This document shows, piece by piece, positions 28,633 through 60,942 of a stretch of DNA of 64,000 nt (position 1 is its first letter; every line of letters starts with the position of its first letter). The stretch lies in assembly GCA_963804995.1 (NCBI GenBank), contig CAWDSK010000003.1, forward strand, positions 640,001 through 704,000, read 5' to 3'. This stretch comes from an uncultured Acidobacteriota bacterium. Lineage in GTDB: Bacteria > Acidobacteriota > Terriglobia > UBA7540. A program made the translations under genes and the position numbers. The notes beneath the pieces were generated by a model. The model did not search any database and was not told where the DNA came from. It saw only the letters and a list, made by a program, of their open reading frames with translations.

Positions 28633-28698
28633 CTGAGCTAATGTGACCAAGTTTGTGAGCCGTACTGAACTGACACTGAGTCAAGCTCAAGGTATATG
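28633..28698 (+). promoter_or_regulatory. Doublet CRP-geometry motif plus -10 (TATATG)
   Basis: CTGAGCTAATGTGACCAAGT 28633; GTGAGCCGTACTGAACTGAC 28655; -10 at 28693. Confidence 0.7.
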
Positions 28699-28838
28699 AA
28701 TAGTGCCACTCGGATCTGGCGCGATGCTTTGCCCAATGGGCGCGCGGCCGAATCTGGCAAGAGAGTCCAATTATCGATGGGGCCGCGAAGGTTCCGTGAG
28801 GTAGATCGAAAAACGATACAGCAGACAGGAGGCAGGCC

Positions 28839-29423
28839 ATGAACATTTTAGCATTAAGTACAATACAGATAACCTTAATCATTGCAATCGCGGTGGTTAT
28901 GGTTGCAAGCATCGCCGCGTTCTTTGCTCTCCGCAAGCGCCGGACAAAAAGGTTACGCGCTCAGTTTGGTGGCGCGGAGTATGACCGCGCTTTGGCGGAA
29001 GGCGGAAGCCGGCGGCACGGAGAAGCCGGGCTCGAAGGGCGCAATGACCGTGTTGTGGCTTTCCATATCCGCCCCCTCGCCACAGCCGAACGGACGCGGT
29101 TCGCAGAATCGTGGAGAAATATCCAGGGACGGTTCGTTGACGGCCCCGGGGCGGCGGTAACGGATGCGGACCAACTTCTGCGTGACGTGATGTCGGCCCG
29201 GGGCTATCCGGTAAGTGACTTTGAACAGCGAGCCGCGGATGTTTCGGTGGACCATCCCCAGGTGATCGACAATTACCGTAAAGCCCACGATATCGCGGGT
29301 CGCGAATCGCGCGGGCAAGCCTCCACCGAGGACCTGCGCCAGGCGATGATTCATTACCGGACCCTTTATGAGGATCTGGCGGGTGAGCCGGAGATGGCCC
29401 ATGCCAAGACTGCAGCAGCATGA
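28839..29423 (+). CDS. Conserved hypothetical protein with N-terminal membrane anchor
   Basis: AGGAGG RBS; TM helix then LR..FG..EYDR, W..IQ.RFVD.P..AV..AD, STEDLRQAM.HYR. Confidence 0.8.
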   Translation: MNILALSTIQITLIIAIAVVMVASIAAFFALRKRRTKRLRAQFGGAEYDRALAEGGSRRHGEAGLEGRNDRVVAFHIRPLATAERTRFAESWRNIQGRFVDGPGAAVTDADQLLRDVMSARGYPVSDFEQRAADVSVDHPQVIDNYRKAHDIAGRESRGQASTEDLRQAMIHYRTLYEDLAGEPEMAHAKTAAA

Positions 29424-29547
29424 GACTCGGGGATAAACCGAAGCAACCCGGGCTTTGTGGCTAGAGGTCCTTTAGAGGTCTTATTGCGCCGCCGGGCCTT
29501 GGAGACTCAAGGGGGGATGGATCATCAACACCCCCCTCGGGCTCGGC

Positions 29548-29724
29548 CTATTCCCACTTTTCCAAAACCTCGACCTGCTTTCTGATGGACGCCACCCTGT
29601 CGTCTATTTCCTCGGCCTCCGCTTCGAGATTGGGAGTGGTTGTTCTGAGCTTCCGGGCGTGGTGTTCCAGTTGATGGGCATCATGATTGAGCGCCTCAAT
29701 AATCGGCTTTAATTCCACTTTCAT
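29548..29724 (-). CDS. Small coiled-coil hypothetical protein (58 aa)
   Basis: GAGGAG RBS; helical-hairpin pattern; motif site upstream. Confidence 0.6.
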   Translation of the reverse strand: MKVELKPIIEALNHDAHQLEHHARKLRTTTPNLEAEAEEIDDRVASIRKQVEVLEKWE

Positions 29725-29830
29725 GATTGCTTTACTCCTCAAGGAACGTTCCTCCCGGAGCAGGAGCGCGGGGGACAGGCCTCCCTCTCCGGGGGCCACA
29801 CATCAGAGGGTGGCAAATAACGCCTGGCGC

Positions 29831-29850
29831 GTCTGTTCTGAATTGCTCAC
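29831..29850 (-). promoter_or_regulatory. CRP-geometry motif site
   Basis: Reverse complement GTGAGCAATTCAGAACAGAC. Confidence 0.65.
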
Positions 29851-29906
29851 GGTCTCTGGTTCACCGAGGCTTCTTCCATCAAGCTTTTGGATGCGGAGGA
29901 GCGGCC

Positions 29907-29950
29907 GTGAGCAATTTTAGACAGACCCCTTGGCAGGAGGCCGGCATACT
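29907..29950 (+). promoter_or_regulatory. CRP-geometry motif plus -10 (CATACT)
   Basis: GTGAGCAATTTTAGACAGAC, 18 nt, CATACT 29945. Confidence 0.65.
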
Positions 29951-30097
29951 CGGGACGCGATTGCCATAGTATGCCACCCAGTTAAGAAAGGGATCGGCGC
30001 GCTCGCGACGGGCAGCCGGGTGGCGTTCCCTGTCCTCGACGCGGACGAAGAACGCTTGGATGCCAAGACGGTTTGCCGCGTTCTCAGCCCTGACTGA
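29948..30097 (+). pseudogene. ackA: Degraded acetate kinase C-terminal remnant
   Basis: DAIAIVCHPVKKGIGALA + SRV...DEE...AKTVCRVL resemble two AckA segments joined by deletion; immediately precedes the xfp start. Confidence 0.55.
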
Positions 30098-30115
30098 AAT
30101 AAGGAGGATCGAACA

Positions 30116-30197
30116 ATGGCCACAAACACTCTGTCCCCGGAACTGCTCAGCAAGATGGATGCGTATTGGCGCGCCGCCAACTATCTGACGGTCGGCA
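30116..30197 (+). pseudogene. xfp: Phosphoketolase N-terminal fragment (27 aa)
   Basis: AAGGAGG RBS, MATNTLSPELLSKMDAYWRAANYLTVG, then similarity stops. Confidence 0.85.
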
Positions 30198-30220
30198 GTG
30201 TAGAGATGAGGATGGCACTC

Positions 30221-30475
30221 CTAGTGCCTATCGCGGTCACCACCGCAACTCCTCTTTGCCTCCTCAAGCTCGTGGCGACGCCTCTCCGCCTGGCTGCTCC
30301 GCTCACCGTGGCGGTCGACTGCTTTTCGGAGATTTTCCTCGGCCCTGTGGATGCGTTGCTCGCATTGGCGGTCGTTATCGCCCGCCTGAGTACGCACCAC
30401 ACCGCTCGCCAGCAACAATACTCCTAAGACGGGAATGAATAGAATTTTCTTCCACTGATTTACCTTATGCCCCAT
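30221..30475 (-). CDS. Small secreted helical protein with a Cys pair
   Basis: GAGGAAG RBS, signal peptide, C..RI..AE..L..A..RHG..S.QA......L......C. Confidence 0.75.
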   Translation of the reverse strand: MGHKVNQWKKILFIPVLGVLLLASGVVRTQAGDNDRQCEQRIHRAEENLRKAVDRHGERSSQAERRRHELEEAKRSCGGDRDRH

Positions 30476-30609
30476 GACTTCCTCCTGATCACTGAAGTTC
30501 TCCAAACTTGCTCAACCTTAGTTGGGATTCCGATTCTGGGGTTCCGGAGTTGCTGACAGCCCGCCCTGAAATCCCAGGCAACTAAATGTCTCCGAACTCT
30601 CGGCGACTT

Positions 30610-30722
30610 GTCTGTTCACAATTGCTCACTACGGCAGGTTGCCTTCATTAAGTGGAATGAGCAATTAAGACCATATCGGTGAGCCATGCTGAACAGACAC
30701 GCAGATGACTGCGGGGTATAAA
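30610..30722. promoter_or_regulatory. Divergent promoter region with three motif sites
   Basis: Minus site 30610-30629 (rc GTGAGCAATTGTGAACAGAC); plus doublet 30657 and 30679; -10 TATAAA 30717. Confidence 0.75.
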
Positions 30723-30875
30723 GAATGTGCCCCGAGTTGCCAGCTAGGATCTGGTGGGAGGCGGACGGCAACAGAAGAAAACACTTAGGACTGTCATCCT
30801 GTTTGCCGCGCCCATCGCAGCCTCTCATTTTAGTCTACAGCCAGTGGAGCGACCGGATTGCTAAGGAGGTGTGCC

Positions 30876-32192
30876 GTGAAGGTCAGCATTTTGAACCGGA
30901 TGGTGGCGGCGGCTATAGTAAGCTCGGCGATGTTGGTGGGAATGAGCATACCGACCAACGGCCAGCCACAACCGCAGCAAGACGAGAAAGCGCAAAAACA
31001 GGAGCAAAAGCACGCCCAGCAGCAACCCCAGCAACAGCGGGTCCAACCGCAACCACAGCAACAACACGCCCAACAGCAACCCCAGCAACAGCGGGCCCAA
31101 CCGCAACCACAGCAACAACACGCCCAACAGCAGCCGCAGCAGCAGCGCGTTCAGCAGCAACCCCAGCAACAGCGTGCTGAGCAGCCGCCGCAACAACAGC
31201 GCGTTCAGCAGCGGCCCCAACAACAACGCGCCGAACAGCAACCTCAGCAACAGCGCGTTCAGCAGCAACCCCAACAACAGCGTGCCGAACAGCAACCCCA
31301 GCAACACGTCGTTCAGCAGCCGCCTCAGCAACAACGCGGTCAGCAGCAACCCCAGCAACAGGTCGTTCAGCAGCCGCCTCAGCAACAACGCGGTCGGCAG
31401 CAACCGCAGCAACAGGTCGTTCAGCAGCCACCTCAGCAACAACGCGGTCGGCAGCAACCGCAGCAACAGGTCGTTCAGCAGCCACCTCAGCAACAACGCG
31501 GTCGGCAGCAACCGCAGCAACAGGTCGTTCAGCAGCCACCTCAGCAACAACGCGGTCGGCAGCAACCGCAGCAACAGGTGGCGCAAGGCCGTCTACCGCA
31601 GCAGCGTCAGCAGCAGCTTATTCAACAGCAACAGCGGCAGGTGACGCAGTACCGCCAAACTTTGGATCAGGGGCAGCGTGCCGAACCCCAGCGTGTGGCG
31701 GCCCTTCAGCAACAAGGACGGAAGGCGGGGTACCGTTATCAGCAACAGTATTCAGACCACGTCCGTCAGCAGCAAATGCGTCTCCAGAACGATCGCCACG
31801 ATTACAACAGTGATCCTTACTTCTACACGGCTGCGAACTATCGTTACAACCGAGGCGGCCGCTACTACGAGACGAATCAATACGGCGCGGATTTGCTCCG
31901 GCAGGCCGTGAACTACGGTTATCAGGAAGGCTTCGGCGCCGGACAGGCAGATCGGCAGGACGGCTGGCGTTCCGACTACCAGGACTCGTATGCCTACCAG
32001 GACGCGAACTACGGCTACGATGGATATTATGTGGAGCAGGCAGACTACAACTACTACTTCCGTGAGGGTTTCCGTCGCGGTTATGAGGATGGTTACTACG
32101 GCCGGCATCAATTCGGCAGCTATTCCAGCGGCAATTACACAATCCTTGGTGGCATTTTGGGGTCAATCCTCGACTTGCAGTCGCTTCGCTAA
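30876..32192 (+). CDS. Secreted Gln-rich tandem-repeat protein with Tyr/Gly-rich C-terminal domain
   Basis: AAGGAGGT RBS plus GTG; signal peptide; 20-aa repeats; GYQEG..AG..DR and YFREGFRRGYEDGY. Confidence 0.85.
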   Translation: MKVSILNRMVAAAIVSSAMLVGMSIPTNGQPQPQQDEKAQKQEQKHAQQQPQQQRVQPQPQQQHAQQQPQQQRAQPQPQQQHAQQQPQQQRVQQQPQQQRAEQPPQQQRVQQRPQQQRAEQQPQQQRVQQQPQQQRAEQQPQQHVVQQPPQQQRGQQQPQQQVVQQPPQQQRGRQQPQQQVVQQPPQQQRGRQQPQQQVVQQPPQQQRGRQQPQQQVVQQPPQQQRGRQQPQQQVAQGRLPQQRQQQLIQQQQRQVTQYRQTLDQGQRAEPQRVAALQQQGRKAGYRYQQQYSDHVRQQQMRLQNDRHDYNSDPYFYTAANYRYNRGGRYYETNQYGADLLRQAVNYGYQEGFGAGQADRQDGWRSDYQDSYAYQDANYGYDGYYVEQADYNYYFREGFRRGYEDGYYGRHQFGSYSSGNYTILGGILGSILDLQSLR

Positions 32193-32309: not shown

Positions 32310-32375
32310 ATGAGCAATTTTGACCAAACGGGTGAGCAGTTCGGGACTGAAAGATGCTTCACCTCAGGATATAAG
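32310..32375 (+). promoter_or_regulatory. Doublet CRP-geometry motif plus -10 (TATAAG)
   Basis: ATGAGCAATTTTGACCAAAC 32310; GTGAGCAGTTCGGGACTGAA 32332; -10 at 32370. Confidence 0.7.
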
Positions 32376-32539
32376 GAGTGTGCTGCGAGGGCTCCGGCTG
32401 CCTGACATCGCCGCCTGAAAGGTAGCAAGGAAAAAGAAGATGGGTGCTGAGAGCTCAAGGGATTTCCGGGCGGCGGGTGGCGCCCTTCTCTTAGAAGCCT
32501 CCGCTAATGCTTGACCGCGAGGGGATAAGGAGGATACCG

Positions 32540-32764
32540 ATGAGTAAATTCAGCTTAGGGCTTGTCCTGTTGATTATCGGTGCGGGTCTGCTTCTGGTGG
32601 GTGGAGTTTCCTATACGACTCAAGACCGAACGAAGATTGGGCCCATCGCCATCGAGTATCCCGAGCAGCATCGCATTCCCTATTCGCCGCTCGCGGGAGC
32701 GCTTCTGGCGGTGACGGGTGGTGCTCTGATGGTTACCGGGCGCGGCAAGAGCCATCAGTCGTAA
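32540..32764 (+). CDS. Small two-TM membrane protein (DUF3185-like)
   Basis: AAGGAGG RBS; TM-GG.SYT....KIGPI-IP..P.AG-TM. Confidence 0.7.
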   Translation: MSKFSLGLVLLIIGAGLLLVGGVSYTTQDRTKIGPIAIEYPEQHRIPYSPLAGALLAVTGGALMVTGRGKSHQS

Positions 32765-32855
32765 TGCTGCGCGGATCGCGCACCTGGCAAGGCGCCCCCA
32801 ACCGGCAGGCTTAGGATAGCCCGCCAGCAAGCATCCTTAAGAAATGGAGAAACAT

Positions 32856-33374
32856 ATGAAACCAAACAGCAAAACAGTATGGGCCAGAGTTATCTTCACC
32901 TTTCTGATCACTGTGACGTTAGGACTAACCCTGATGCCGCTCGCTTCCGCAGGCGATCGTGGCGATGTTAAGAAGGTGCAGGAGACTCTGCGCGACAAAG
33001 GCTACTACACGGGGCCGGTCGATGGCATCATGGGCGACCAAACTCGGGCAGCTATTCGCCAGTATCAGCAATCTGAGAATCTGCCTGTTACAGGACATCT
33101 GGATTCCGGGACGGCGGGCAAACTTGGCGTGGGGCCGGAGTCGGTAGGCGGCGATTTTAAGGCCTCCGGCGAAGCGGTTGGAACGGGGGGCAAGGGAGTC
33201 GGCCATGAGATGAAGGAAGGCAAGCCCATCGCGGCAGGCAAGGAAATGGGCAAGGGTCTAGGCCGAGGAGGCAAGGACATCGGTAAGGGCGTCAAAGCAG
33301 CGGTCAGCCCCAAAAGCGACAGCGGTGACCGTGAAAAGAAGGCGAAAGCTGATTCCGAAAAGCAGCCGCAGTAG
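32856..33374 (+). CDS. Secreted peptidoglycan-binding-domain protein with Gly/Lys-rich tail
   Basis: VKKVQETL..KGYY.GPVDGIMG.QTRAAIRQYQ....LPVTG.LD..T...LG. Confidence 0.85.
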   Translation: MKPNSKTVWARVIFTFLITVTLGLTLMPLASAGDRGDVKKVQETLRDKGYYTGPVDGIMGDQTRAAIRQYQQSENLPVTGHLDSGTAGKLGVGPESVGGDFKASGEAVGTGGKGVGHEMKEGKPIAAGKEMGKGLGRGGKDIGKGVKAAVSPKSDSGDREKKAKADSEKQPQ

Positions 33375-33579: not shown

Positions 33580-33580
33580 A

Positions 33581-33790
33581 ATGATTCCCGACTATGACTT
33601 GTCGAACCTGCCGGCTTCTCATATCGACCTGTGGATTTACCTCCGGGTCGATGCCATCTTCGACCAGATCATGGCTGATCAGGCCAAGCGCCTGGGATTC
33701 CCTCTCGATCCAGGGGACGGCACCGTTTCAGTCCTGATGGAGAATCCGCTGGCGAGACCGAACCGCGTATCACCGGGAGCGGACGCATAA
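33581..33790 (+). CDS. Small hypothetical protein
   Basis: ATG directly after the dps remnant stop; no recognised family. Confidence 0.4.
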   Translation: MIPDYDLSNLPASHIDLWIYLRVDAIFDQIMADQAKRLGFPLDPGDGTVSVLMENPLARPNRVSPGADA

Positions 33791-33825: not shown

Positions 33826-34038
33826 ATGTCCATAGTGCAAACACCTTTGGTACAAATCTTAATTGCTCTGGTCGTAGTGGGGGTTCTTCTCTGGCTTGTC
33901 AATACCTTCATTCCGATGGCGGGTTCCATCAAATCAATCCTGAATGCGGTCGTCATCATTCTGGTGGTTGTGTGGCTCCTGAATGTCTTTGGACTCATGC
34001 ATTACGTCACCCAGTTTCAAGTCGGCCACCGAGTGTGA
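33826..34038 (+). CDS. Thivi_2564-family small membrane protein
   Basis: AAGGAGGT RBS; LVVVGVLLWLVN.FIPMAGSIKSILNAVV. Confidence 0.8.
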   Translation: MSIVQTPLVQILIALVVVGVLLWLVNTFIPMAGSIKSILNAVVIILVVVWLLNVFGLMHYVTQFQVGHRV

Positions 34039-34067: not shown

Positions 34068-35577
34068 TTATGGTACTTTGCTGATCAGTTGCGCAGGCGA
34101 TGGGAGCTGCGAGGCGTTCCAACCTCCACCGAGCGCCTCGATCAACCCTCCGCTGGCCGTCATCTGCTGAATTCGAAGATTGACCGCAGTTTCCTGATTG
34201 GATAGCAATGCGGTTTGCGCGGTAAGCACATTCAGGTAAGGATCGATTCCCAAGCTGTAGCGATCCTTGGCGATCGCGAGGCTTCTTTCCGCCGATTTGA
34301 CCGCCGTGTCCTGATATTGAATCTCCACCGACAGGATCCGCAGCGACGCGAGGTTGTCTTCAACTTGTTGAAAAGCCGTTAGCACCGTCTGCCGATAGTT
34401 GGCCACGGTCTCGTCGTACTGGGCTCTGAATTGCTCCACCGTGGCCCGGCGCAACCCCGCGTCAAAAAGGGTTTCCGCGGCTGCCGGGCCAACCGAGAAA
34501 AAGCGGCTCGGCCATGTGAACCAACTCGCGATCGAAGTGCTTTCGAGTCCTGCCGCGGCGCTTAACGTTACCGTCGGAAAGTATGCTGCCCTCGCAATGC
34601 CAATCTGGGCGTTGGCCTGAGCAACCTGGCGCTCTGCTGCGGCGATGTCGGGACGCCGCTCAAGAAGCTGGGACGGAACGCCGAGAGGGAATCGCCGGAG
34701 GGCTTGAGTTGAGCGGTTCGATGGGAATTGAAAACGTCGATGCCGGTTGGCCGGTCAGCATGGCGATGGCATGTTCAAACTGCGCCCGTTGGACGCCCAG
34801 AGCGGCATCCTGTGCTTGCGTGGCTTCGAGTTGAGTCTCGGCTTGCGCCACGGCTTCGTCCGAGTCGATGCCTGTCTCGTACAGAGCCCTGGTCAGATCG
34901 AGAGACTGTTGAAAAGCGACCACAGTAGAATCCAACAACTGCTTTAAAGCATCCTGTCCGCGAAGTTGAAAGTAATCCACAGCAACATCGGCCTGGACAG
35001 TGAGGCGGGTATTCTCCAGATCCGCCGCGCTGGCCTGCGCTCCGTAGGCAGCCGATTTGATCGTGTTCCGGATACGGCCGAACAAGTCCGGCTGCCATGT
35101 CGCATCAAACGGGAGGGTATAATCAGTAAATGTACTCGTCGAGGAAGATGTGGAACCTCCCGCTTTGCCACTGGATAATGTGGCCGACGGCCGTTGCACG
35201 GTAATGGCTGGGTTGGTCGTCACTCGAGGGAAAAGCTGGGATCGAGCTTCCTTGACCAGGGCGCGCGCGGCAAAAAAGCTTGCCGCAGCAGCGGCGATGT
35301 TTTGGTTTGAAACATTAACCTTCTCTTCCAGCGCATTCAACTGAGGATCGTTGAAAATCTCCCACCATTTACCGCGAAGCGCATCATCTTTCGGCTGCGC
35401 CACTTTCCAACCTTCCGTATTTTTGTAATCGGCGGGAGTGAGTTCCTTGTATGCCGCAGGAGTTTCCGCGGTCGGTGTGTGGTACTTTGGGCCGACCGTG
35501 CACCCTGCCAGGAGGCAAGATGTCACGGCGAGACACATTCTGGCTCTTAGATGGAAAGAAGTCATAATCTTATGCAC
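34068..35577 (-). CDS. RND efflux outer-membrane lipoprotein (NodT/OprM family); 1-nt insertion at about 34686
   Basis: LLAGC lipobox, WWEIFNDPQLN.L; removing one base restores IPLGVPSQLLERRPDIAAAER. Confidence 0.88.
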
Positions 35578-43612: not shown

Positions 43613-43656
43613 AATCTAAGCAACCCCAGAACGCCTGTCTGTTCACAATTGCTCAT
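43613..43656 (-). promoter_or_regulatory. CRP-geometry motif plus -10 (TAGATT) upstream of mdtA
   Basis: rc ATGAGCAATTGTGAACAGAC 43637-43656, 18-nt gap. Confidence 0.7.
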
Positions 43657-48025: not shown

Positions 48026-48092
48026 ATCCTAATTAAGTCAGGTCCTGCCTGTCTGCTCACAAGAGAACATCCATTTGTTCAAAACTGCACAT
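48026..48092 (-). promoter_or_regulatory. Degenerate doublet motif plus -10 (TAGGAT) upstream of the DUF3494 gene
   Basis: rc ATGTGCAGTTTTGAACAAAT 48073-48092 and ATGTTCTCTTGTGAGCAGAC 48051-48070; 19-nt gap. Confidence 0.55.
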
Positions 48093-51834: not shown

Positions 51835-51897
51835 GTTGATCCTCCCCCCTAATCTCCGTCTCCAGGCAGATCCGGGATGGAAGCTAGAGGCACACTT

Positions 51898-51963
51898 GTT
51901 ATAGCGTGGGGTGATTCTCGTGTCAGCCCCGTACTGCTCACCTGGCTGGTCATAATAGCTCAC
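51898..51963 (-). promoter_or_regulatory. Doublet CRP-geometry motif plus -10 (TATAAC)
   Basis: rc GTGAGCTATTATGACCAGCC 51944-51963 and GTGAGCAGTACGGGGCTGAC 51922-51941; 18-nt gap. Confidence 0.7.
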
Positions 51964-52067
51964 CCAAGTTTTTGGGAGGCCTGTAGGGGGGGCCGGACGA
52001 AACTACGAAGGGTTCGTCGGGTTTGGAGGGGTGGGGCTTCAGCCCCGCCGTTACAAGGCCTTCCTGA

Positions 52068-53312: not shown

Positions 53313-53965
53313 CGGCTCAGCTCCTTCTGGACCAAAGCCATGAGCCTGGCCTTGGCGCTCTCAAGAGTGTTGGTATAGATATCGATGCGGTCTATCTTTC
53401 GAGCGAGACTTCCTAGGCCCAACTCCTTCTCCAGCCAGTTGGAGAAGTCGTTGGTGCGCAAGTGCAGTCTTAAACGCGAGGCAATGAAGTGGAAATGAAA
53501 GGAGGCATGACTCAGCCTTCCAAGGCCGCATTGAAATTCCTCTAGTGTTCGGGCCTCGATCCCCAAGGGCACCGCCACTTCAATGGCCTCGCCAAAGTAG
53601 AAGGGTTCGAAGGCCGATTGTTCGGCCTCGCGCGAGTTCGCCTCACAATACTCTGAGACCAGCCGTTTAATATCCGCCCGCAGCTCCGCCAAAGAGACGT
53701 AATCGCGAATGTCGAGGGAGGCTAACTGCTCCGCCAGTTCAGGCCGATTACAAGAGGCCAGTACCCACTGAGCAAAATCATTGGAGAATCCCTCCGTAAG
53801 AAAGTGGTGGCGGCTGAGACTCTGAAAGGTGTGGTAGAAAACCGATGCGTCGCTGCAACTCTCCAGGCAAGCGCTCAGTTGAGCCAGCGTGGTCGCCTTC
53901 TGATTAAGGATCAGGGGCAGATATGATGCCGTCACGAATCGGAAGGGGTTCTCAGCTGTTTTCAT
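53309..53965 (-). CDS. DUF5752-like protein
   Basis: Duplicated A.TL..L/F...L.....S..YH/FH.......NDF..W units; adjacent to treT. Confidence 0.7.
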   Translation of the reverse strand: MKTAENPFRFVTASYLPLILNQKATTLAQLSACLESCSDASVFYHTFQSLSRHHFLTEGFSNDFAQWVLASCNRPELAEQLASLDIRDYVSLAELRADIKRLVSEYCEANSREAEQSAFEPFYFGEAIEVAVPLGIEARTLEEFQCGLGRLSHASFHFHFIASRLRLHLRTNDFSNWLEKELGLGSLARKIDRIDIYTNTLESAKARLMALVQKELSR

Positions 53966-54854
53966 CGATTTCGCCCTCCAATCTTGCCAGGAACTGCTTT
54001 ACCTCGCCAGGGTTGCGAACGTAAAACCGAGCCTTCGTCCGCCCTCCTCCGCCGACCCGGATGGTCAGCCCGTTGGGAAGCGCCGTGAAAGCCATTTCAT
54101 CGGTCGTGTCATCACCCAGAAAAACCGGAAGCACAGGCCGGCGCGGATTTGAGATCAATGCGCGCACCGCGGGTCCCTTTCCCTCGATTACCTTGGGAAG
54201 CAACTCCCAAACCTTCTTGCCTTCCAGGAGGTGAATCTGGGGGCTGAAACGCTCGCAGACTTCGTGGATGACAGGGCGCGCCCGCCGCACGGCCGCGGCT
54301 GAGGCTTCGCGGTAATGGACGGCCAGCCCCAACCTCTTGTCTTCGATCCATATCCGCTTCGTCCTTGGAAGGTTCCCTTCCAGCGCTTGTTTGGCTTCCG
54401 CGAGCAATTTCCGCTCTCGAACCATTCTCCCGAGCCGGGGGCCCTCATACCCATGCAAACCCAAAAGGTGAACACCCGCAACCGGGACGAGGCGCCGGAG
54501 GTCCGCCAGCGTACGTCCGCTAATGACATAGACTCGGATCCGCCCATCCCGGGAAAGTCTGCCCAAGAGCCGCCGGAGCGGGAGGCTCAGAGGCTTTACG
54601 TCATGCGGCCGTCTGCGGAGCCGTGTCAGGGTGCCGTCGAAATCAAGAAAAAGCGCGACGAATTCTGCAGATCGGATCTCCTTCGCCACTTTCTTCCAGT
54701 GTTTGAAGAGGTGGGTCGATCCACCTTGGCGGCGCGTAACTCGTTTCCGCCTCCCAATCTCCGGCGCCACGCGGCGCGAACGGGCCGCTGGGTTCCTCGG
54801 TCGCTTCAAGAGTACTCCTGACCGCGTTTTCCTCGGATCGACATTAACCCCCAA
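53952..54854 (-). CDS. otsB: Trehalose-6-phosphate phosphatase (HAD; start uncertain)
   Basis: LFLDFDGTL, ISGR, AVHYR, GKKVWE, FLGDDTTDE.AF. Confidence 0.9.
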   Translation of the reverse strand: MGVNVDPRKTRSGVLLKRPRNPAARSRRVAPEIGRRKRVTRRQGGSTHLFKHWKKVAKEIRSAEFVALFLDFDGTLTRLRRRPHDVKPLSLPLRRLLGRLSRDGRIRVYVISGRTLADLRRLVPVAGVHLLGLHGYEGPRLGRMVRERKLLAEAKQALEGNLPRTKRIWIEDKRLGLAVHYREASAAAVRRARPVIHEVCERFSPQIHLLEGKKVWELLPKVIEGKGPAVRALISNPRRPVLPVFLGDDTTDEMAFTALPNGLTIRVGGGGRTKARFYVRNPGEVKQFLARLEGEIDENS

Positions 54855-54869: not shown

Positions 54870-57137
54870 TTACGAGCGAGTCCTCGCCGGCTCTGGGCGG
54901 TCGGGGCGGATTTGCGACAACTCTTCGATCAGGCTGCCGGCCCAGCGATAAATGTTATGGTCTTTCACCACCTGCCGCATGCGACACATCCTCGCCCCTT
55001 TTTCGTCCGGATCCATCTCCAAGGCATAACGTATTGCCTCCGCCAGTTGCTCGGTATCGTAGGGATTCACCACCAAGGCGTCACGTAATTCCCGGCTAGC
55101 GCCCGTGAAGCGGCTCAGTATCAAAACGCCTCCTTCATCATCCCGGGCGGCTACAAACTCTTTCGCCACCAGATTCATGCCGTCGTGCAGCGAGGTCACC
55201 AGGCAAAGATCGGCCGCCTTGTAGTAGTGTCCAATCTCTTCGTGGGTATGATGCCGTTTCAAGTAGACGATGGGTTTCCACGTACTCGTCTGAAACCGCC
55301 AGTTGATGCGATCCGCTTCGGATTCGACCTCCCCCAATAAGTCATGGTAGCGCTTGATGTGAGTGCGGCTGGGGGCGCCTATCTGCACGAAGGTGAACTG
55401 GCCTTGGTACGCGGGGTACTTTTCGAGGAACCGCTCGATACCCCGAAAGCGCTCCAGGATCCCTTTCGTGTAGTCCACCCGCTCCACCCCCACACCCATG
55501 AAGGTCGCCTGCACGCCCAGATCCTTGAACAGAGCCGCTCGTTCGAGGTAGAGCGACCGTGGTGAGTCGCCTGCTTCCGCCACCCCCTCCGGGACGGCAA
55601 CGCTGATGGGAAACGGCCTGACCAGGGTAAGCTGGCCTCCGCGACTGACGGCGAATCGTTCCCATTCAATTCGGCACTCCAGGACGCGGTCGACGGTCTC
55701 GAGAAAATTATCGCAGTGCGATTGAATGTGGAACCCGACCAGGTCCGCACCCAGCAGGCCATCGAGCAGTTCCCTCTGCCAGGGGCAAATCCCGAAGGCC
55801 TCCGGGTTCGGCCACGGAATGTGCCAGAAGATGGCGACGCGAGCGTCCGGCCGTTTTTCCTTCACGAGGCGCGGCAAAAGAGCGAAGTGGTAATCCTGGA
55901 TCAGGACCGCAGGCTGCTCAATGTCTTTCATTTCCTCGACCACTGCTTGGGCAAACTTCGCATTGGCCTCTTGATAGAAACCCCAGTCGGAAGCCCGAAA
56001 AGTCGGCCGCGTGTGAGCGATGTGGCAGAGCGGCCAAAGTCCTTCATTGGCGAATCCAAAGTAATAGCCTTCCTCTTGTTCCTTGGTGAGCCAAACCCTT
56101 CTCAGGGTGTATTGCGGTTCATCCGGAGGGACCCTCAAGCGGTCCCTCGCATCCACCCTCTCGCGGTCGGCGTCCCCCGACCCATGTGCCACCCACGTCC
56201 CCTCGCAAGCCCGCAGGATGGGCTCAAGTGCCGTCACCAGGCCGCTGGCGGGAACCACAGCTTCCACCGACTTCCCGTGGCGGATGTGCATATAGGGTTC
56301 CCGGTTTGAGACCACGAAAAGCGGTTTTTCCCGGAGGCGGCCGCGGACGTGAATCCGGAGCCGTTCCGGAGTCCAGACCGATTCAGCGGCTTCGCGCAGC
56401 CGAGCCTCTTCTTCGGCCGCGGCTCTTGCGGTTTCCAGGCTCTTCACAAAATGGGTTACTTCCTGAGTAAGCGGTTGGAATAGATCGGCCCCGGGAAGAT
56501 CGCGGGGTTCGACGGTCCGGCCAGCGCGGAGCTGCCGCATCCATTCCGCCGTCCTGGCGATCGGCCTGGTGATTGTCCAACGGATGATGAGCAGGGTTGC
56601 CAACACAATGAAAAGAGTTTGGACGAGGACTCGCCGGAACGAGTCGCGCCAAAGCCGGGTGCCTTGGGCGTCAATAAAGCTGGCGTCGTGAAAAATCGCC
56701 AACGAGCCAACGACCTTGTCGTCCAAGATCAAAGGAACAGAGTAAACATGCAGGCGTGCCGGACCTACCCCGAGGTATTCCCCGTGGGGCTGATTCTCGG
56801 TCACCGCCCGCGCGGCCACATCCGGGCGATTCCGGAGGCGTTCGCCCAACCCCGTGGTCATGGCCAGGGGGTGGCCGTCCGCGTCATAGACGGCGACGCC
56901 CGCCAGCCGCTGGCGGTTACCGAACCGGTCCACAAGATTCTGAAGATCTTTATGGTTGCGCTTCTGTAGGAGAGGCTCAACCCCCTGGCCAAGGCTTTCG
57001 GCTAGCAGTTCCGCGCGCTGCTCCAGTTCCTTCCGCGTGTTGCGCTTCTCCCCCTTCACCTGGAAATAGGCGAAGAGCAAAGTCACCAGAGCAGTGCCAA
57101 TAATCAGCGAGATCATCAAACGGGCAGTGATCTTCAT
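54870..57137 (-). CDS. otsA: Trehalose-6-phosphate synthase with N-terminal TM-periplasmic-TM-HAMP-like extension
   Basis: [57 protein letters not shown]; about 270 extra N-terminal residues with two TMs. Confidence 0.88.
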
Positions 57138-57217
57138 ATTTCCGTCCTGCGAGCACCGGCTCAGCCACCTGCCACCCGAGGCAGGCAAGCGATCCTGCAA
57201 GAACAGTTTCCGCCGCG

Positions 57218-57934
57218 CTACAGATGGTGCAGGGTGTCTTCCGCTTCCGGGCGCGGTTTGGGGTGGAACTGAGACTGCAACAGCTCCCGGGCAAGATCCC
57301 GGGCGCCCAAGCCGAAGGCAATGGCCATCGCCGTCACTAAACCGCCAAAGGTAATTGCAAAGGTTACAATAATGGTGGTGCGGCTGATCTCCAGTTCGTC
57401 CAGCGCGGCCACGACGGTCAACGCCATAACAAAGAAGCGGGTGATACCAGAGAGGAATCGCGCTGAGGGAAGATTGGCATTAACCGCAGCTATCAGCACG
57501 CTCCGGCCCAGAAAGCCACTGATCAGCACCCCGGCGATCAGGACCAGCAAGGCGGCCAGCAGATGGGGCAGATAAAGGAACACTCGTTCCGCCAGGTTCG
57601 TCGTCAGCGGCGTCCCCAGGGCGTTCAGTCCTGCCAGCATCGCCGTCAGCACAATCAGTCCTTGTATGATTTGGCCGGCCAGGTAGGAGCTTGACGGCGC
57701 CAGCCCCGTTCGTTGGACGATCAATCCCACGCCCAATCGGTCACACAGCCGATCGAAGCGCAGGACGCGGAGGATTCGGTAAACGATCTCCTTGGCGAGC
57801 CACCCCAGCAGCAATCCCAGCAGCAGGAGAACCAGCATCCCCACCAGGCTTGAAAGACTCGCCACCGCTTGCTGGCCCAGGTCCCGCAACGGCCCCCAAA
57901 CCGCTTGTTCCAAGAATCCTTTCATGGTTGTCAC
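57218..57934 (-). CDS. Multi-TM protein resembling the MscS/CmpX conserved TM-helix domain
   Basis: Repeated P.L..A...L..G helices; AIAFGLG.RD.A. Confidence 0.75.
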   Translation of the reverse strand: MTTMKGFLEQAVWGPLRDLGQQAVASLSSLVGMLVLLLLGLLLGWLAKEIVYRILRVLRFDRLCDRLGVGLIVQRTGLAPSSSYLAGQIIQGLIVLTAMLAGLNALGTPLTTNLAERVFLYLPHLLAALLVLIAGVLISGFLGRSVLIAAVNANLPSARFLSGITRFFVMALTVVAALDELEISRTTIIVTFAITFGGLVTAMAIAFGLGARDLARELLQSQFHPKPRPEAEDTLHHL

Positions 57935-59211
57935 CTCTTTTCACGAGCCCCCAGGGGCCATTGATTGATCAAATAGGGCTTCAACTGCTCGTAAATCAAG
58001 CAAAGTCTCTCAATGCAATCATTCGATTGGGCCACCGACTCGTTTTCCGTCTTTCCCGCAAAGGATGCCACCCATCCCAGGTAGAGCGGCGCCAGGGATT
58101 TCAGCAGGTGTTCGCGGTCGATCTCCCAGCGGTGGTAAGCAAGAGCGGCCTCGTAGATGAGTCCCACCCAAAGCTCCTCCCGCAGCGCGAACTTCTCGAC
58201 CGGGAGCGACGCACACGCATCAAGTTCTTTCAACTGCTGCGCAGTATAGAGCGTTTCATAAATGGGCCGCAGATCCCTGACCCCTTGCGTGAACGAGGCC
58301 ATTAGCTGCGGCCGAGGGATCGGCACCGCTTCCACCTCTGCCTTGAAAGGAGAGCCCAACAGAGGGGCGGGCAAGGAGCCCAGCACGTTCCGCCATACGG
58401 ATTCATAGGTCTCCATCAGGCTGAAGACGGATCCCACCACCTGAACCAGAACCGCGCCTAAGTCCGGCCCGGAATCTTTGGAATCGTGGATCCTGGCTCC
58501 CAGGTAGGACTGACAGACCCGGAAGTTCCCGGCCACAGCCGCGGTGGTCATCCAGATGTCGATACTGTAGCGAGCAACGTCCGTGTTCCACACGTCGCGC
58601 GCAAGAAAGTGGCGCACCAGGCGCCCGGAAATTCCGAACTCCCCGCCAATGGGTTGCCGGATGCGGCAGCCATACAGAGCCCGAGTCAGCGGGTAGACAA
58701 TGCTGCTGGTGATGGTTCCGTCATATTTGTGGCGGTTATAATAAGGGGCCACGTAATCGAAATCCTGCGCCAGAATGGGTTCGAGGAGCAGGTTGATCCA
58801 TTCCGGGTTAATGCTCTGGAGGTCCGCATCCACAATCACCAAGGCTTGGGCCTCGGCGAGCTCCGCAACTCGGAAGAGCGTCCGGAAGGCGTTCCCTTTG
58901 CCGGGCACGCCGTGATACGGAGTCGTGAGGTGATGCACGGGGTAGAGAGGATGCTGGATTATCAGCAGCGGTTGTGAATCGGTTTTCGCCCTTTGCGCAA
59001 TCTCCGGGGTGCCGTCCTTCGAGCCGCCATCGGAATTGACGATTAGAGCCTTATGGCCTGCCAGGTACTTGAGTAACCCGGCCTGTGCAGTCTTGACCAC
59101 GTGACCGATGGTGAGGGCGCTGTTGTAACTGGGAATTCCCACGACGATGTCAAACGGCCCCAGCTCGCCGAGCGTCTCCATCGCCTGATCTTTCAGGAGT
59201 TCTTCCGTCAA
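57931..59211 (-). CDS. GT-A glycosyltransferase (glucosyl-/mannosyl-glycerate synthase-like)
   Basis: VVGIPSYN, NSDGGS.DGT, PGKG.A, VDAD, P.Y.RHKYDGTIT, RQPIGGEFG, IDIWMT. Confidence 0.78.
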   Translation of the reverse strand: MTEELLKDQAMETLGELGPFDIVVGIPSYNSALTIGHVVKTAQAGLLKYLAGHKALIVNSDGGSKDGTPEIAQRAKTDSQPLLIIQHPLYPVHHLTTPYHGVPGKGNAFRTLFRVAELAEAQALVIVDADLQSINPEWINLLLEPILAQDFDYVAPYYNRHKYDGTITSSIVYPLTRALYGCRIRQPIGGEFGISGRLVRHFLARDVWNTDVARYSIDIWMTTAAVAGNFRVCQSYLGARIHDSKDSGPDLGAVLVQVVGSVFSLMETYESVWRNVLGSLPAPLLGSPFKAEVEAVPIPRPQLMASFTQGVRDLRPIYETLYTAQQLKELDACASLPVEKFALREELWVGLIYEAALAYHRWEIDREHLLKSLAPLYLGWVASFAGKTENESVAQSNDCIERLCLIYEQLKPYLINQWPLGAREKR

Positions 59212-59558
59212 CGTGACCTTCTTCCAGCATTGTCTCTTCTTGCCTATTAGAGCCGATTATGAGGGTGCGGCATGACACGTGCCAAACACCCCCACTTTGG
59301 CTATCTGCCTGCTCCTGCGGCAAATCCGGCCGGTCCCCACAGGATGCAGGAAGTAAATTTGGGAAGGTTGCGTGGCAATTTTACCCTCGAATTCGCGGCG
59401 CGCCCAACCCCCGGTCATACCAACCGAAGACACTCTGGTTTTCAAACCGTGGCACGAATCGGGATTCCCATTCTGGGTCCCCGAGTCGCCGACGGTACAC
59501 CCCGGGTTTCCATTCATGAACCTTGACGCCAAGATCAAAACATCCCGGGCGGCGGGCT

Positions 59559-59578
59559 GTCTGTTCAAAAGTGCTCAG
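59559..59578 (-). promoter_or_regulatory. CRP-geometry motif site upstream of the trehalose operon
   Basis: rc CTGAGCACTTTTGAACAGAC; no clear -10 at the usual spacing. Confidence 0.6.
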
Positions 59579-59636
59579 CGGCAATCGGATTCGCCGCCGC
59601 TCGCCGCGAAAGCCGTATCCTGGCTGCCGGACTTAG

Positions 59637-59780
59637 GGATGCCTGGCCGGCCAGACGGTACGCATCTCCACGGCTGTCACGGTGACCAATTGCACGCTTT
59701 AGAGGATCGAGAAGTCGCTGATGGTGCGTCTGCTCCACGAGCAGCACGGCGTCTCGGAATTGTTCGTCACGCACCTCCTA
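59637..59780 (+). pseudogene. Crp/Fnr-family transcription regulator internal fragment with in-frame stop
   Basis: GCLAGQTVRISTAVTVTNCTL*RIEKSLMVRLLHEQHGVSELFVTHLL (end of cNMP-binding domain and start of the following helices). Confidence 0.72.
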
Positions 59781-59825
59781 CCATCCAAACTGTCACGACC
59801 AACCGCATACCCCACCCCCACTGCG

Positions 59826-59891
59826 CTGAGCAATCTTGACCTACGGCGTGAGCCGTACGGAACTGACACGCCTACCGAGAGACGGTATAAG
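59826..59891 (+). promoter_or_regulatory. Doublet CRP-geometry motif plus -10 (TATAAG)
   Basis: CTGAGCAATCTTGACCTACG 59826; GTGAGCCGTACGGAACTGAC 59848; -10 at 59886. Confidence 0.72.
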
Positions 59892-59949
59892 CAGTGTGCC
59901 TCGAGTATCCGGTGAGAGGCAGAGGCAACAAGAGTGGGAGGCAATACCT

Positions 59950-60651
59950 ATGAAATACAATCGAGTTATCAGCACAGTAGTTCTGTTTTTACTCCTCGGA
60001 AGCACCCTTCCCGCCTTCGCGGAAAAAGGCGAGAAGGAAAAGGGTGGAGGCGGAGGTCAGGCGCCACAGGCACAGCACCAGGCGCAACCTCAGCGTGCCC
60101 AGCAGCAGCCGCAACGTGCCCAACAGCAACCACAACGCGCGCAACAGCAGCCGCAGCGCACTCAACAGGTGCAACGTCAGCAGCAGCCGCAGCGCACCCA
60201 ACAGGTGCAACGCCAGCAGCAACCGCAGCGCACCCAACAGGTGCAACGCCAGCAGCAACCGCAGCGCACCCAACAGGTGCAACGCCAGCAACAGCCGCAA
60301 CGCACGCAACAGGTGCAGGCCCAGCAATCACAGCGCGGGCAGTCCGGAAGGCAGCAATCACAGACCATGGCTACCAACCGTGGCGGTGGCGGCGGGGGCC
60401 AATACGGGCGTATTTCCAATGCCAATTACGGCGCCCACTTCGGGCATGACCACTCGTTCCACATGGGGCGTCCCCAGATGATCGGCGGGTATAACCGCTT
60501 CCAGTACGGCGGCTATTGGTTCGGGTTCAATGCCGGATGGCCCATCGGCTGGGACTACGACGACGACGTTTATGTCGAATACATCGATGGCGCCTACTAC
60601 ATGTTCGACCTGAGGCATCCGGGTATTCAGATTGCACTCAACATCTTTTAA
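59950..60651 (+). CDS. Secreted Gln-rich repeat protein with aromatic C-terminal domain
   Basis: GGGAGG RBS, signal peptide, 7-aa and 12-aa (QRTQQVQRQQQP) repeats, HFG..H.F...RFQYGGYWF..W.Y.DDVYVEY. Confidence 0.85.
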   Translation: MKYNRVISTVVLFLLLGSTLPAFAEKGEKEKGGGGGQAPQAQHQAQPQRAQQQPQRAQQQPQRAQQQPQRTQQVQRQQQPQRTQQVQRQQQPQRTQQVQRQQQPQRTQQVQRQQQPQRTQQVQAQQSQRGQSGRQQSQTMATNRGGGGGGQYGRISNANYGAHFGHDHSFHMGRPQMIGGYNRFQYGGYWFGFNAGWPIGWDYDDDVYVEYIDGAYYMFDLRHPGIQIALNIF

Positions 60652-60898
60652 CGATCTATCCAGCACACCTTCGGGGAGGGATTCAACCGGCGCGGGCTGG
60701 GTGATTCGCCCCGGGGGCGAAGTTGGAGGAGGCCTTTGGCGTAAGTGGCACTTCAGCGGCTCATCATGCTGAGAGCTGTCATCGTGAATGGCCATGTTCA
60801 TCCAAAGCGCCGGGGGCAAATAATTCGATAATTACCGGGCTTCCAGCCTGTATTTCCCCCCCCGCCATTAATAAATCTTGGACAGTTTGAGACAAAGT

Positions 60899-60942
60899 GT
60901 GAGCAAAACAGAACAGATGCAGGAATCACCCCAGGGTACAAT
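60899..60942 (+). promoter_or_regulatory. CRP-geometry motif plus -10 (TACAAT)
   Basis: GTGAGCAAAACAGAACAGAT, 18 nt, TACAAT 60937. Confidence 0.72.

Follow-up and report, generated by a model that had tools for sequence, protein, structure and literature searches.

We consider it probable that a 20-mer box, repeated in the window (the whole stretch of 64,000 nucleotides of DNA analysed here) and elsewhere in the genome of its host, a soil acidobacterium, is a promoter module and likely the site of a subfamily of the Crp/Fnr superfamily that acts by class II activation from a sigma-70-type promoter. About 50 box promoters lie before predicted stress-protection genes, and this multi-copy branch of Crp/Fnr regulators would switch them on together.

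Distribution and sequence of the box

The box is restricted to intergenic DNA. All of the 12 20-mers that the preliminary description had listed in the window were found, with matching coordinates and strands (Table 1). We scored them with a weight matrix trained on the genome-wide sites, counting matches at thresholds of 16 and 20 bits. The second copies that had been claimed upstream of six of them (28633, 30657, 32310, 48073, 51944 and 59826) all reached at least 16 bits, as did 11 of the 12 proximal copies; the exception, at 48051 on the minus strand, is degenerate (TGTTC-N6-GAGCA). In line with the lack of boxes noted earlier in the first 28 kb, no site of at least 16 bits was present in positions 1-28632. 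When up to two mismatches were allowed, the pattern occurred 16 times in the window, versus 2.3 times expected, and none of 100 shuffles reached 16 matches. In the whole genome, the exact pattern gave 22 matches, versus none in the reversed genome. The matrix gave 57 matches of at least 20 bits, of which 57 were intergenic, versus 2 in the reversed-genome control, and 74 matches of at least 16 bits (64 intergenic) versus 10, where intergenic status rests on crude gene calls covering approximately 75% of the genome. The window holds 18 of these 74 sites in 0.85% of the genome's DNA.

An additional matrix match at 59083 on the plus strand (17 bits) lies within a gene and is probably due to chance. 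Two 50-kb bins of the genome contain 17 and 14 sites, the cluster in the window is bordered on its left by a tRNA-Arg gene, and some promoter pairs, for example 59826 in the window and C6:1668509, are nearly identical over approximately 100 bp. The small ORFs between the 51922/51944 pair and the genes named behind it are doubtful.

Table 1. Boxes in the window, their -10-like hexamers and the genes behind them (for tandem pairs, the distal box is given first).
Type	Position	Strand	Score (bits)	-10-like hexamer	Genes behind the box
Tandem	28633-28654, 28655-28674	+	18.6, 32.3	TATATG 28693-28698 (partner of 28655)	194-aa membrane-anchored protein 28839-29423 (predicted target)
Single	29831-29850	-	27.7	CACCCT at 18 nt (poor)	83-aa coiled-coil ORF 29548-29799 (box points to it)
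Single	29907-29926	+	23.0	CATACT 29945-29950	ORF 30116-30427, starting with a remnant of a phosphoketolase N-terminus
Single	30610-30629	-	31.4		94-aa ORF 30221-30505 with the look of a small secreted or membrane protein (box points to it)
Tandem	30657, 30679 (span 30657-30698)	+	25.5, 31.3	TATAAA 30717-30722	444-aa repeat protein, 34% Gln, 30858-32192 (predicted target)
Tandem	32310, 32332 (span 32310-32351)	+	35.6, 23.5	TATAAG 32370-32375	Small membrane protein 32507-32764; PG_binding_1 protein 32844-33374; small membrane proteins 33581-33790, 33826-34038 (predicted targets)
Single	43637-43656	-	29.5	TAGATT 43613-43618	Efflux operon: HlyD-type adaptor 42133-43362; RND pumps 38813-42136, 35697-38816; outer-membrane factor ORFs 34660-35577, 34068-34454
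Tandem	48073, 48051 (span 48051-48094)	-	25.5, <16 (degenerate)		Ice-binding-like protein 46879-47763 (downstream)
Tandem	51944, 51922 (span 51922-51965)	-	24.9, 24.3	TATAAC 51898-51903	LolA-like protein 50702-51565; AI-2E family transporter 48881-50044 (downstream)
Single	59559-59578	-	29.5	Extended, TGnTTTGAT; hexamer 59534-59539	GT2 gene 57931-59211, then MS-channel-like gene; OtsA-like 54870-57200; OtsB-like 53952-54854; DUF5752 53309-53965; TreT 52068-53312 (predicted targets)
Tandem	59826, 59848 (span 59826-59867)	+	24.4, 29.9	TATAAG 59886-59891	233-aa secreted protein, 26% Gln, 59950-60651 (predicted target)
Single	60899-60918	+	22.4	TACAAT 60937-60942	759-aa GT4-domain protein 60957-63236 (predicted target)

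The core of the box is TGAGCAA-NN-TTGA(A/C)CA, and all of its forms share the symmetric skeleton TGnnCAA-NN-TTGnnCA. In the host genus, the box is not palindromic: the left TGAGC and the right GA(A/C)CA differ at two positions, that is, the half-sites read TGAGC versus TGKTC. The perfect palindrome TGAGC-N6-GCTCA occurs in seven copies in the genome, five of them inside called genes, and none of the seven carries the CAA..TTG core; the perfect palindrome is not used. Asymmetric halves together with an unused perfect palindrome are not what a symmetric homodimer predicts.

Position of the box in the promoter

The box is oriented and keeps a strict spacing to the -10 element. The eight -10-like hexamers reported exactly 18 nt past the 20-mer were all present as listed. 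In a non-redundant set of 64 tandem promoters taken from this genome and its relatives, TATAA lies exactly at +38 in 36. A loosely defined -10 was placed at +38 in 39 promoters and at +39 in 7, and no other offset between 24 and 59 had more than 2. For TAnnnT in 55 single-site promoters, the counts were 9 at +38, 6 at +39 and 4 at +40, and at most 2 elsewhere. The box keeps one spacing across 119 non-redundant promoters, with 18 nt (occasionally 19) between the 20-mer and the hexamer, and the 18-nt spacing to -10-like hexamers also occurs in loci of Nitrospirota and Terriglobales. If transcription starts 7 nt past the hexamer, the centre of the box falls at approximately -41.5. In about half of the promoters, a second box lies 22 bp upstream; this distal box has no -10 partner, yet it is conserved as well as the proximal one.

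The tandem promoters read cTGACA-N17-TATAAn, and the tRNA promoters of the host genome read TTGACA-N17-TATAAT-like; the 3' end of the box therefore resembles a housekeeping -35. Promoters so near to the housekeeping consensus might fire without help, and a site overlapping the first bases of such a -35 could equally be a repressor operator, so the same Crp/Fnr subfamily might bind the box as a repressor and leave the DNA under stress. We regard this scenario as unlikely: repression would not require one fixed register, yet the spacing is constant in the 119 promoters and across phyla, and in many single-box promoters the -35 and the -10 are poor. Moreover, -41.5 is the position from which the Crp/Fnr family characteristically activates.

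Association of the box with a Crp/Fnr subfamily

The box is physically and phyletically associated with one Crp/Fnr subfamily. The host genome contains 19 HTH_Crp_2 matches, among which nine paralogs form a single clade with 47-95% identity; they possess PF00027 (cNMP-binding-type) and PF13545 (Crp-type HTH) domains and a recognition helix reading R-S/L-R-V-S-H/Y. None of the subfamily genes is encoded in the window. Seven of the nine lie 29-852 nt from a box, while two have no box nearby in the host genome. Among five other full-length Crp/Fnr-like genes, three have no box within 70 kb, one is on a contig without a listed box, and one lies only 1382 nt from a box because it adjoins a subfamily gene. 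The sensor domain of the subfamily retains the Gly-Glu and Arg of the cyclic-nucleotide phosphate-binding cassette, and the only invariant Cys in the alignment lies in this domain; four class III nucleotide cyclases are present in the host genome.

The box is conserved in the host genus, in other families of Terriglobia and in Nitrospirota. The box at 59559 is kept while its flanks have diverged in 7 loci from 6 genus relatives, the box at 43637 was matched with diverged flanks in a genus relative (locus L033), and an ice-binding gene also follows a tandem box in locus L057. We sampled 80 loci encoding relatives of the subfamily in Acidobacteriota, Nitrospirota and Alphaproteobacteria. They yielded 291 box matches of at least 13 bits versus none in the reversed control; 59 of the 80 carry a site of at least 16 bits, and in 30 of 77 the Crp gene is followed on its own strand by a box at most 450 nt from its 3' end. 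Among 41 related genomes, boxes were found in all 25 that have the subfamily (mean 14.1 matches) and in 5 of the 16 that lack it (mean 0.69). Box counts and the subfamily were correlated across the 41 genomes (Spearman 0.83), although these association statistics are overstated, since neither the paralogs nor the kin genomes are independent samples. In other lineages, the box takes the form of perfect palindromes, TGGTCAA-NN-TTGACCA and TGTTCAA-NN-TTGAACA.

The preliminary description had guessed at a Crp/Fnr-type regulator purely on grounds of geometry, and three independent kinds of comparative evidence, namely co-location, co-occurrence and the inverted repeats of other lineages, agree in supporting this reading. 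However, the single activator that it had also proposed is replaced by nine paralogs. Their recognition helices are almost identical, so that any of them might act at a given promoter.

A different reader of the box was also considered. The four half-sites of the tandem promoters in this genome (TGAGC, TGACC, TGAGC and TGAAC) can be read as direct repeats of TGA(G/C/A)C with spacings of 10, 12 and 10 bp, as a response regulator of the OmpR/PhoB or a similar type would do, in which case the Crp genes would be mere neighbours or targets; three receiver plus zinc-ribbon paralogs and one NtrC-type regulator do lie behind boxes in the host genome. We find this improbable. OmpR/PhoB-type sites are expected to be head-to-tail with a 10-11 bp period and never inverted, whereas the box is a true palindrome in relatives, which argues against a direct-repeat regulator, and the symmetric skeleton persists in all of its forms. 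Furthermore, box counts track the Crp subfamily across genomes, and only 2 of the 80 related loci have a receiver/zinc-ribbon gene next to the Crp gene.

Comparison with known regulatory systems

The box of E. coli CRP is TGTGA-N6-TCACA, used in class II and class III geometry, and the recognition helix of CRP is R-E-T-V-G-R. The subfamily resembles CRP in combining a cNMP-binding domain with HTH_Crp_2 and in its 16-bp 5-6-5 box, which would be centred at approximately -41.5 as judged from the -10, with an optional site two helical turns upstream. It differs in its box (TGAGCAA-NN-TTGA(A/C)CA), its helix (R-S-R-V-S-H), its nine paralogs, its oriented asymmetric box and its stress rather than catabolic targets. 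With helix and box both different and equivalog scores of 52-58 bits against a cut-off of 266, CRP proper was rejected; the CRP-type box has only two copies in the genome.

FNR and FixK, with the consensus TTGAT-N4-ATCAA, belong to the same superfamily and share the presumed class II position of an inverted repeat of 14-16 bp with a TTGA-type half-site, the inner core of the box described here being CAA..TTG. They were rejected as well: the alignment has no N-terminal Cys cluster, and the scores were 32 versus 228 bits (Fnr) and 31-37 versus 300 bits (FixK). Seven copies of the FNR-like box occur in the genome and presumably belong to other paralogs.

Control of stress or late-growth gene sets by the Crp/Fnr family also has precedents in SdrP of Thermus thermophilus and DdrI of Deinococcus radiodurans. 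SdrP is described as an activator that depends on stationary phase and responds to oxidative stress, its activity tracking its own concentration, and both proteins are reported to act without cAMP (PMC12040651). The dependence of SdrP on its own concentration, as described there, resembles the arrangement in the host genome, where boxes precede three paralog genes. Of 134 solved chains that matched the profile of the subfamily, the best 60 included neither 2ZCW nor 8YZ7 and were led by actinobacterial CRP/GlxR (E 3e-25).

The gene set behind the boxes shares CsbD, BON/OsmY-like, otsA/otsB, YtxH, YflT-like and Transgly_assoc members with the known contents of the RpoS, SigB and EcfG/PhyR general stress regulons. 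Unlike in those sigma-based responses, the common element here is a transcription factor box before a housekeeping-type promoter, with no special -35/-10 pair, and no RpoS or SigB equivalog scored above the NCBIfam cut-off in the 92%-complete host genome. Promoters of EcfG/PhyR read GGAAC-N16/17-CGTT, and GAAC resembles the -35 of ECF-type sigma factors. GAAC(A/T)GACA might accordingly be mainly the -35 of an alternative or paralogous sigma factor that would itself define the regulon; three RpoD-like sigma genes (open frames of 569-612 aa) are present in the host genome, and GG precedes TATAA in many tandem promoters. We give little credence to this explanation: no CGTT or other CGT-type -10 is conserved 16-17 nt past GAAC, where instead TATAA follows at 22 nt, a finding that also led us to reject an EcfG/PhyR-type promoter. 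In addition, the TGAGCAA half and the distal box are out of a sigma factor's reach, the distal box is well conserved with no -10 to serve, and the association with Crp genes would stay unexplained.

Finally, the boxes might have arisen by the copying of a promoter cassette, mobile or duplicated, and answer to no common regulator, as the near-identical pairs, the islands of sites and the tRNA-Arg gene at the cluster edge could suggest. This is hardly credible: once near-identical copies are removed, information above background is confined to the boxes, the -10 and a few flanking bases, orthologous promoters retain the box while their flanks diverge, and the box is present in three phyla.

Proposed mechanism and biological meaning

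Under the preferred reading of class II activation, one or several of the nine paralogs would bind the box as a dimer, with the proximal box centred at approximately -41.5 and the distal one at approximately -63.5, judging from the position of the -10 hexamer. The dimer at -41.5 would contact RNA polymerase, and the last bases of the 20-mer with the next A, (C)(T/A)GACA, would form a -35 element separated by 17 nt from TATAAn. The CAA..TTG core is no longer present at the centre of the proximal box, which is the weaker of the two and may be loaded with the help of the distal box, and the three paralog genes behind boxes could provide positive feedback.

The output would be a general-stress, desiccation and cold programme, with CsbD, BON proteins, trehalose synthesis, the ice-binding protein and Gln-rich secreted proteins as putative targets, along with small membrane proteins, efflux and envelope proteins. 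Of the gene names given earlier in the window, the Gln-rich proteins, the RND operon, the ice-binding-like protein, TreT/OtsA/OtsB and GT4 stood, while the GH130 part of the GT4-GH130 reading was not recovered by Pfam. The 53 ORFs behind boxes in other genomes comprised 8 Crp paralogs, 7 receiver-domain proteins, 5 Ysc84, 2 radical SAM/B12 and 2 ActD/YflT-like proteins, and one each of CsbD, YtxH, Transgly_assoc, OmpA and ice-binding proteins, among others. These target types match the list of the host genome, and the recurrence of CsbD, BON, trehalose synthesis, YtxH, ice-binding and Gln-rich secreted proteins looks like a general-stress set; the stress programme first suggested for the window fits the targets in the host and in other genomes.

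The regulator subfamily is unnamed; the literature search found no paper on the box regulon, and, as far as our searches show, the stress regulation of Acidobacteria and Nitrospirota is undescribed in print. These bacteria are among the most abundant in soil and peat, and most such genomes come from uncultured organisms. More tentatively, a Crp/Fnr paralog family instead of an alternative sigma factor might be the master stress and dormancy switch of Acidobacteria and Nitrospirota, perhaps acting as mixed dimers. The box is asymmetric and oriented, and the recognition helices vary (H, Y or L) at one or two of the positions that contact bases; mixed dimers of variant paralogs would allow several signals to converge on one promoter code.

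Some records with relatives of the subfamily bear the label of a cultured isolate (Bradyrhizobium sp. dw_78 and Mesorhizobium amorphae CCBAU 01570), which would open the system to laboratory work. Concrete reagents for such tests are the box itself, the nine regulators and the start sites predicted near 28705, 30729, 32382, 59898 and 60949. A promoter code readable from sequence, together with a candidate regulator family, would make a stress, desiccation and cold regulon predictable in such genomes, and it may provide a physiological context for unnamed Gln-rich secreted repeat proteins, small membrane proteins and receiver/zinc-ribbon proteins.

Conserved boxes and their distribution in the genome

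The genome comprises 7.55 Mb with 58% G+C, and the window is C3:640001-704000 of it; its nearest relatives in public records are Terriglobia and Acidobacteriota MAGs. All twelve 20-mers named in the preliminary description (hereafter boxes, with the core TGAGCAA-NN-TTGA(A/C)CA) were found in the window at the positions and on the strands first reported for them. The same holds for the six second copies, which lie 22 bp further upstream, and for the eight hexamers of -10 type exactly 18 nt past the 20-mer. The pattern TGAGC-N6-GAAC-W-GAC with at most 2 mismatches occurred 16 times in the window against 2.3 expected, while its exact form gave 22 matches in the whole genome and 0 in the reversed genome. 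With weight matrices derived anew from a curated set of proximal and distal sites, the genome gave 74 matches at 16 bits or more (64 intergenic; 10 in the reversed control) and 57 at 20 bits or more, against 2 in the control; all 57 were intergenic. The window represents 0.85% of the genome but holds 18 of the 74 sites, and a second cluster of 14 sites is carried by contig C6. As had been noticed earlier, the left part of the window is free of boxes: at 16 bits or more, the first lies at 28633. This part, with carbohydrate and TonB-type genes, stops at tRNA-Arg(TCT), and this raises the possibility of an island that holds the stress cluster.

The weight matrix first obtained by iteration picked up REP-like repeats unrelated to the box (37 of 164 matches, which were removed) and was discarded. 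The repeat, about 45 bases long and often tandem, includes ATGATCAATTTGGAAAGAAC and passes for the box if the weight matrix is loose.

Promoter anatomy

The promoters fell into two classes, tandem (22 in this genome; 64 non-redundant including related loci) and single (55 non-redundant). The tandem consensus starts with a weak AACTGG and the distal box nTGAGCAATTTTGACCA; 22 bp on stands the proximal box GTGAGCnGTACTGAACTGAC, followed by A, 17 nt and TATAAn. Single promoters possess one box, GTGAGCAATTTTGAACAGAC, and a weaker -10. TATAA stood exactly at +38 in 36 of the 64 tandem promoters, and a more loosely defined -10 was located at +38 in 39, at +39 in 7 and at any other offset in at most 2; in single promoters, the -10 offsets peaked at +38 to +40. 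Because the end of the 20-mer and the next A read cTGACA or cAGACA, and the promoters of the tRNA genes of this genome are TTGACA-N17-TATAAT-like, the box appears to abut, and partly to form, a sigma-70-type -35 element. An ECF or EcfG-type promoter was rejected on the tandem consensus. From the position of the -10 hexamer, the proximal box is predicted to be centred at about -41.5 and the distal box at about -63.5; transcription would start some 50 nt past the first base of the proximal 20-mer (predicted at 28705, 30729, 32382, 59898 and 60949). The proximal box of tandem promoters lacks the CAA..TTG core, and this loss fits a weak site that would be loaded with the help of the distal box.

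The transcripts predicted for tandem promoters begin with a common nA(G)TGTGCCnCGAG, behind which a hairpin-like stretch, CCAG...GGATCTGG, often stands. This shared start may reflect common ancestry or a leader element; in the whole window nothing but a tRNA reached the gathering threshold of an Rfam family, so that the conserved leader starts match no known RNA family.

In the genus of this genome, the box reads equally as the direct repeats TGAGC, TGACC, TGAGC and TGAAC, and a response regulator binding direct repeats was therefore considered as its reader. The skeleton TGnnCAA-NN-TTGnnCA is symmetric, and other lineages carry the perfect inverted repeats TGGTCAA-NN-TTGACCA and TGTTCAA-NN-TTGAACA. 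Because of these palindromic forms and the association of the box with a Crp subfamily across genomes, the direct-repeat reading was rejected. The asymmetry of the box in the genus is real, and its strong half always faces away from the promoter. The genome contains only 7 copies of the perfect palindrome TGAGC-N6-GCTCA, 5 of them inside called genes and none with the CAA..TTG core.

Genes behind the boxes

Of the stress-programme targets proposed in the preliminary description, the Gln-rich, small membrane, RND efflux, ice-binding-like, trehalose and GT4 types were recovered, but Pfam did not recover the GH130 part. In the window, boxes precede genes for a 194-aa protein anchored in the membrane, for small proteins of coiled-coil and membrane type, and for two secreted repeat proteins in which glutamine makes up 34% and 26% of the residues. 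Also behind boxes there are genes for a peptidoglycan-binding protein, an ice-binding-like protein, a GT4 protein and a LolA-like protein accompanied by an AI-2E family transporter, as well as two operons, one for RND efflux and one of six genes that include OtsA, OtsB and TreT homologues. Elsewhere in the genome, boxes stand before genes for CsbD, BON-domain proteins, DUF3300, OmpA/PEGA, two B12/radical-SAM enzymes, a FecR-domain protein, an NtrC-type regulator and a Crp/Fnr protein. Three paralogous proteins of about 195 aa, in which a receiver domain precedes a C-terminal CxxC...CxxC ribbon that belongs to no Pfam family, are also encoded behind boxes. One of these genes forms a transcription unit with a Crp paralog, and two other extracted loci (L085 and L100) have the same arrangement. 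The receiver/ribbon protein was rejected as an obligatory partner of the regulator: it adjoins the Crp gene in the C6 operon, yet does so in only 2 of 80 related loci.

Several of these loci showed irregularities (coordinates in the table). The first ~35 residues of the ORF after box 29907+ match a phosphoketolase N-terminus (Pfam XFP_N, E 6e-4; NCBIfam, 1e-4) and are followed by low complexity; judged from this match, the ORF start looks like a remnant of an xfp gene. It is overlapped on the opposite strand by a plausible small secreted protein. Instead of one intact outer-membrane factor, the efflux operon has two ORFs (305 aa and 128 aa) that lie ~200 nt apart and each carry part of the OEP repeats; this split may represent a frameshift or a pseudogene. 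A 70-aa ORF matches the NCBIfam Thivi_2564 small membrane protein family (E 3e-20). On C6, an IS110-family transposase was probably inserted between a tandem promoter and its former target.

Coordinates of features in the window and elsewhere in the genome (G000; C1, C2, C3 and C6 are its contigs, and L002, L003, L012 and L019 are loci extracted from it)
Feature	Location	Remark
tRNA-Arg(TCT)	window 28029-28105	~530 nt ahead of first box
Shared predicted leader starts	window 28699-28720, 30723-30750, 32376-32400, 51870-51897, 59892-59915	tandem promoters
Phosphoketolase-like ORF start	window 30116-30220	after box 29907+
Small secreted protein	window 30221-30505	opposite strand; served by convergent box 30610-
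70-aa ORF	window 33826-34038	operon of box 32332
Outer-membrane factor	window 34068-35577 (-)	split
REP-like repeat	G000:C3:621880-621990	~36 other sites outside window, e.g. C2:635126, C6:397644
Receiver/ribbon paralogs	L012:1536-2117 (C6), L002:10271-10849 (C6), L019:1812-2408 (C1)	all behind boxes
IS110-family transposase gene	L003:5126-6166 (C6:1340126-1341166)	directly behind tandem promoter C6:1341530
RpoD-like sigma genes	G000:C6:1068811-1069506, C3:86233-86952, C6:781500-782225	

A Crp/Fnr subfamily associated with the box

The Crp-type helix-turn-helix gave 19 matches in the genome, and nine Crp/Fnr proteins formed one clade with a mutual identity of 47-95%. Their recognition helix reads G-T-T-R-S-R-V-S-H-F-M-N-K, with L replacing S in one paralog and Y replacing H in two. 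Seven of the nine genes lie 29-852 nt from a box. Three of the nine are themselves preceded by boxes, one of them immediately and the other two in second place within an operon. Among the five other full-length Crp/Fnr-like genes, three are more than 70 kb from the nearest box, one is on a contig without a listed box, and the last, 1382 nt from a box, neighbours a subfamily gene. None of the nine paralog genes has a TGGCAC-N5-TTGCW-like sigma-54 site (at most 2 mismatches, intact GG/GC) in the 400 nt before it. In an alignment to GlxR, the phosphate-binding cassette retains its Gly-Glu and Arg, with Ile after the Arg where Thr/Ser stands. The genome encodes four class III nucleotide cyclases and three RpoD-like sigma factors, whose open frames span 569-612 aa; nothing in it scored above the cut-off for an RpoS or SigB equivalog.

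When a collection with one genome per species was searched with a profile built on seven paralogs, more than 512 relatives came up. The best 80 loci of these (~400 kb) came from Acidobacteriota, Nitrospirota and Alphaproteobacteria, including records of Nitrobacter, Bradyrhizobium and Mesorhizobium; Bradyrhizobium sp. dw_78 and Mesorhizobium amorphae CCBAU 01570 are among the relatives. The 80 loci held 291 matches at 13 bits or more, against 0 in the reversed control, and 59 of them had a site of at least 16 bits. Of the 77 loci with enough flank, 30 had a same-strand site less than 450 nt past the 3' end of the Crp gene, and 2 had one just upstream of that gene. In Nitrospirota and Terriglobales loci, -10-like hexamers again stood 18 nt after the 20-mer.

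We then compared 41 genomes: this one, 24 others from the genus, and 16 that belong to other families in the class. The numbers of subfamily genes and boxes were correlated (Spearman 0.83), a figure that, like the counts that follow, describes a pattern and is not a test, because kin genomes and paralogs are non-independent and several genomes are incomplete. Boxes occurred in 25 of 25 genomes with the subfamily (mean 14.1 matches to two patterns) and in 5 of 16 without it (mean 0.69); the latter include 8 of 12 genomes from outside the genus that showed neither subfamily nor box and are 94-100% complete. The tandem architecture, including the -10, is retained in another family of the class (loci L021-L023), and the box of the trehalose operon in seven loci of six genus relatives, with diverged flanks.

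The 53 ORFs behind boxes in other genomes encode 8 Crp paralogs, 7 receiver-domain proteins, 5 Ysc84, 2 B12/radical-SAM enzymes and 2 ActD/YflT-like proteins, with CsbD, YtxH, Transgly_assoc, OmpA, an ice-binding protein, an RRM protein, DUF326 and a transposase as singletons and 22 without a family; the set is of the same kind as in this genome. Palindromes with TGGTC accompany the helix RSRVSFFMNR and those with TGTTC the helix RSRVSTFMNK, but Nitrospirota with RSRVSFFMNK use TGAGC..GACCA. We take such co-variation as hints and do not count it as evidence.

Mode of regulation

The earlier interpretation of a Crp/Fnr stress regulon is supported by comparative genomics, namely co-location, co-occurrence and the palindromic forms of the box. 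On the best reading, one or more subfamily paralogs would activate in a class II or class III manner, driving a general-stress, desiccation and cold programme, and boxed paralog genes would give positive feedback. Repression by the same proteins is the strongest rival, since tandem promoters have good core elements that resemble those of the tRNA promoters; the single register across 119 promoters speaks for activation, as do the poor core elements of many single-box promoters. A regulon defined by a special sigma factor or by a mobile cassette would leave both the Crp association and the distal box unexplained.

Relation to known systems

The subfamily reaches no named equivalog in NCBIfam: it scores 52-58 bits against the CRP cut-off of 266 and far below the cut-offs for NtcA, FixK, Fnr, FnrL, LdrP, PtrA and YeiL. 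Its nearest solved structures are actinobacterial CRP/GlxR. Crp/Fnr proteins that serve in stress or late growth are described from Thermus (SdrP) and Deinococcus (DdrI) (PMC12040651), and the subfamily may be similar to them in function. Full-text searches of literature outside subscription journals brought up no description of the box or of such a regulon in Acidobacteria. The system is a new, unnamed addition to a well-known kind, with an oriented box and nine paralogs as its twists, and its physiological interest comes from the content of the regulon.
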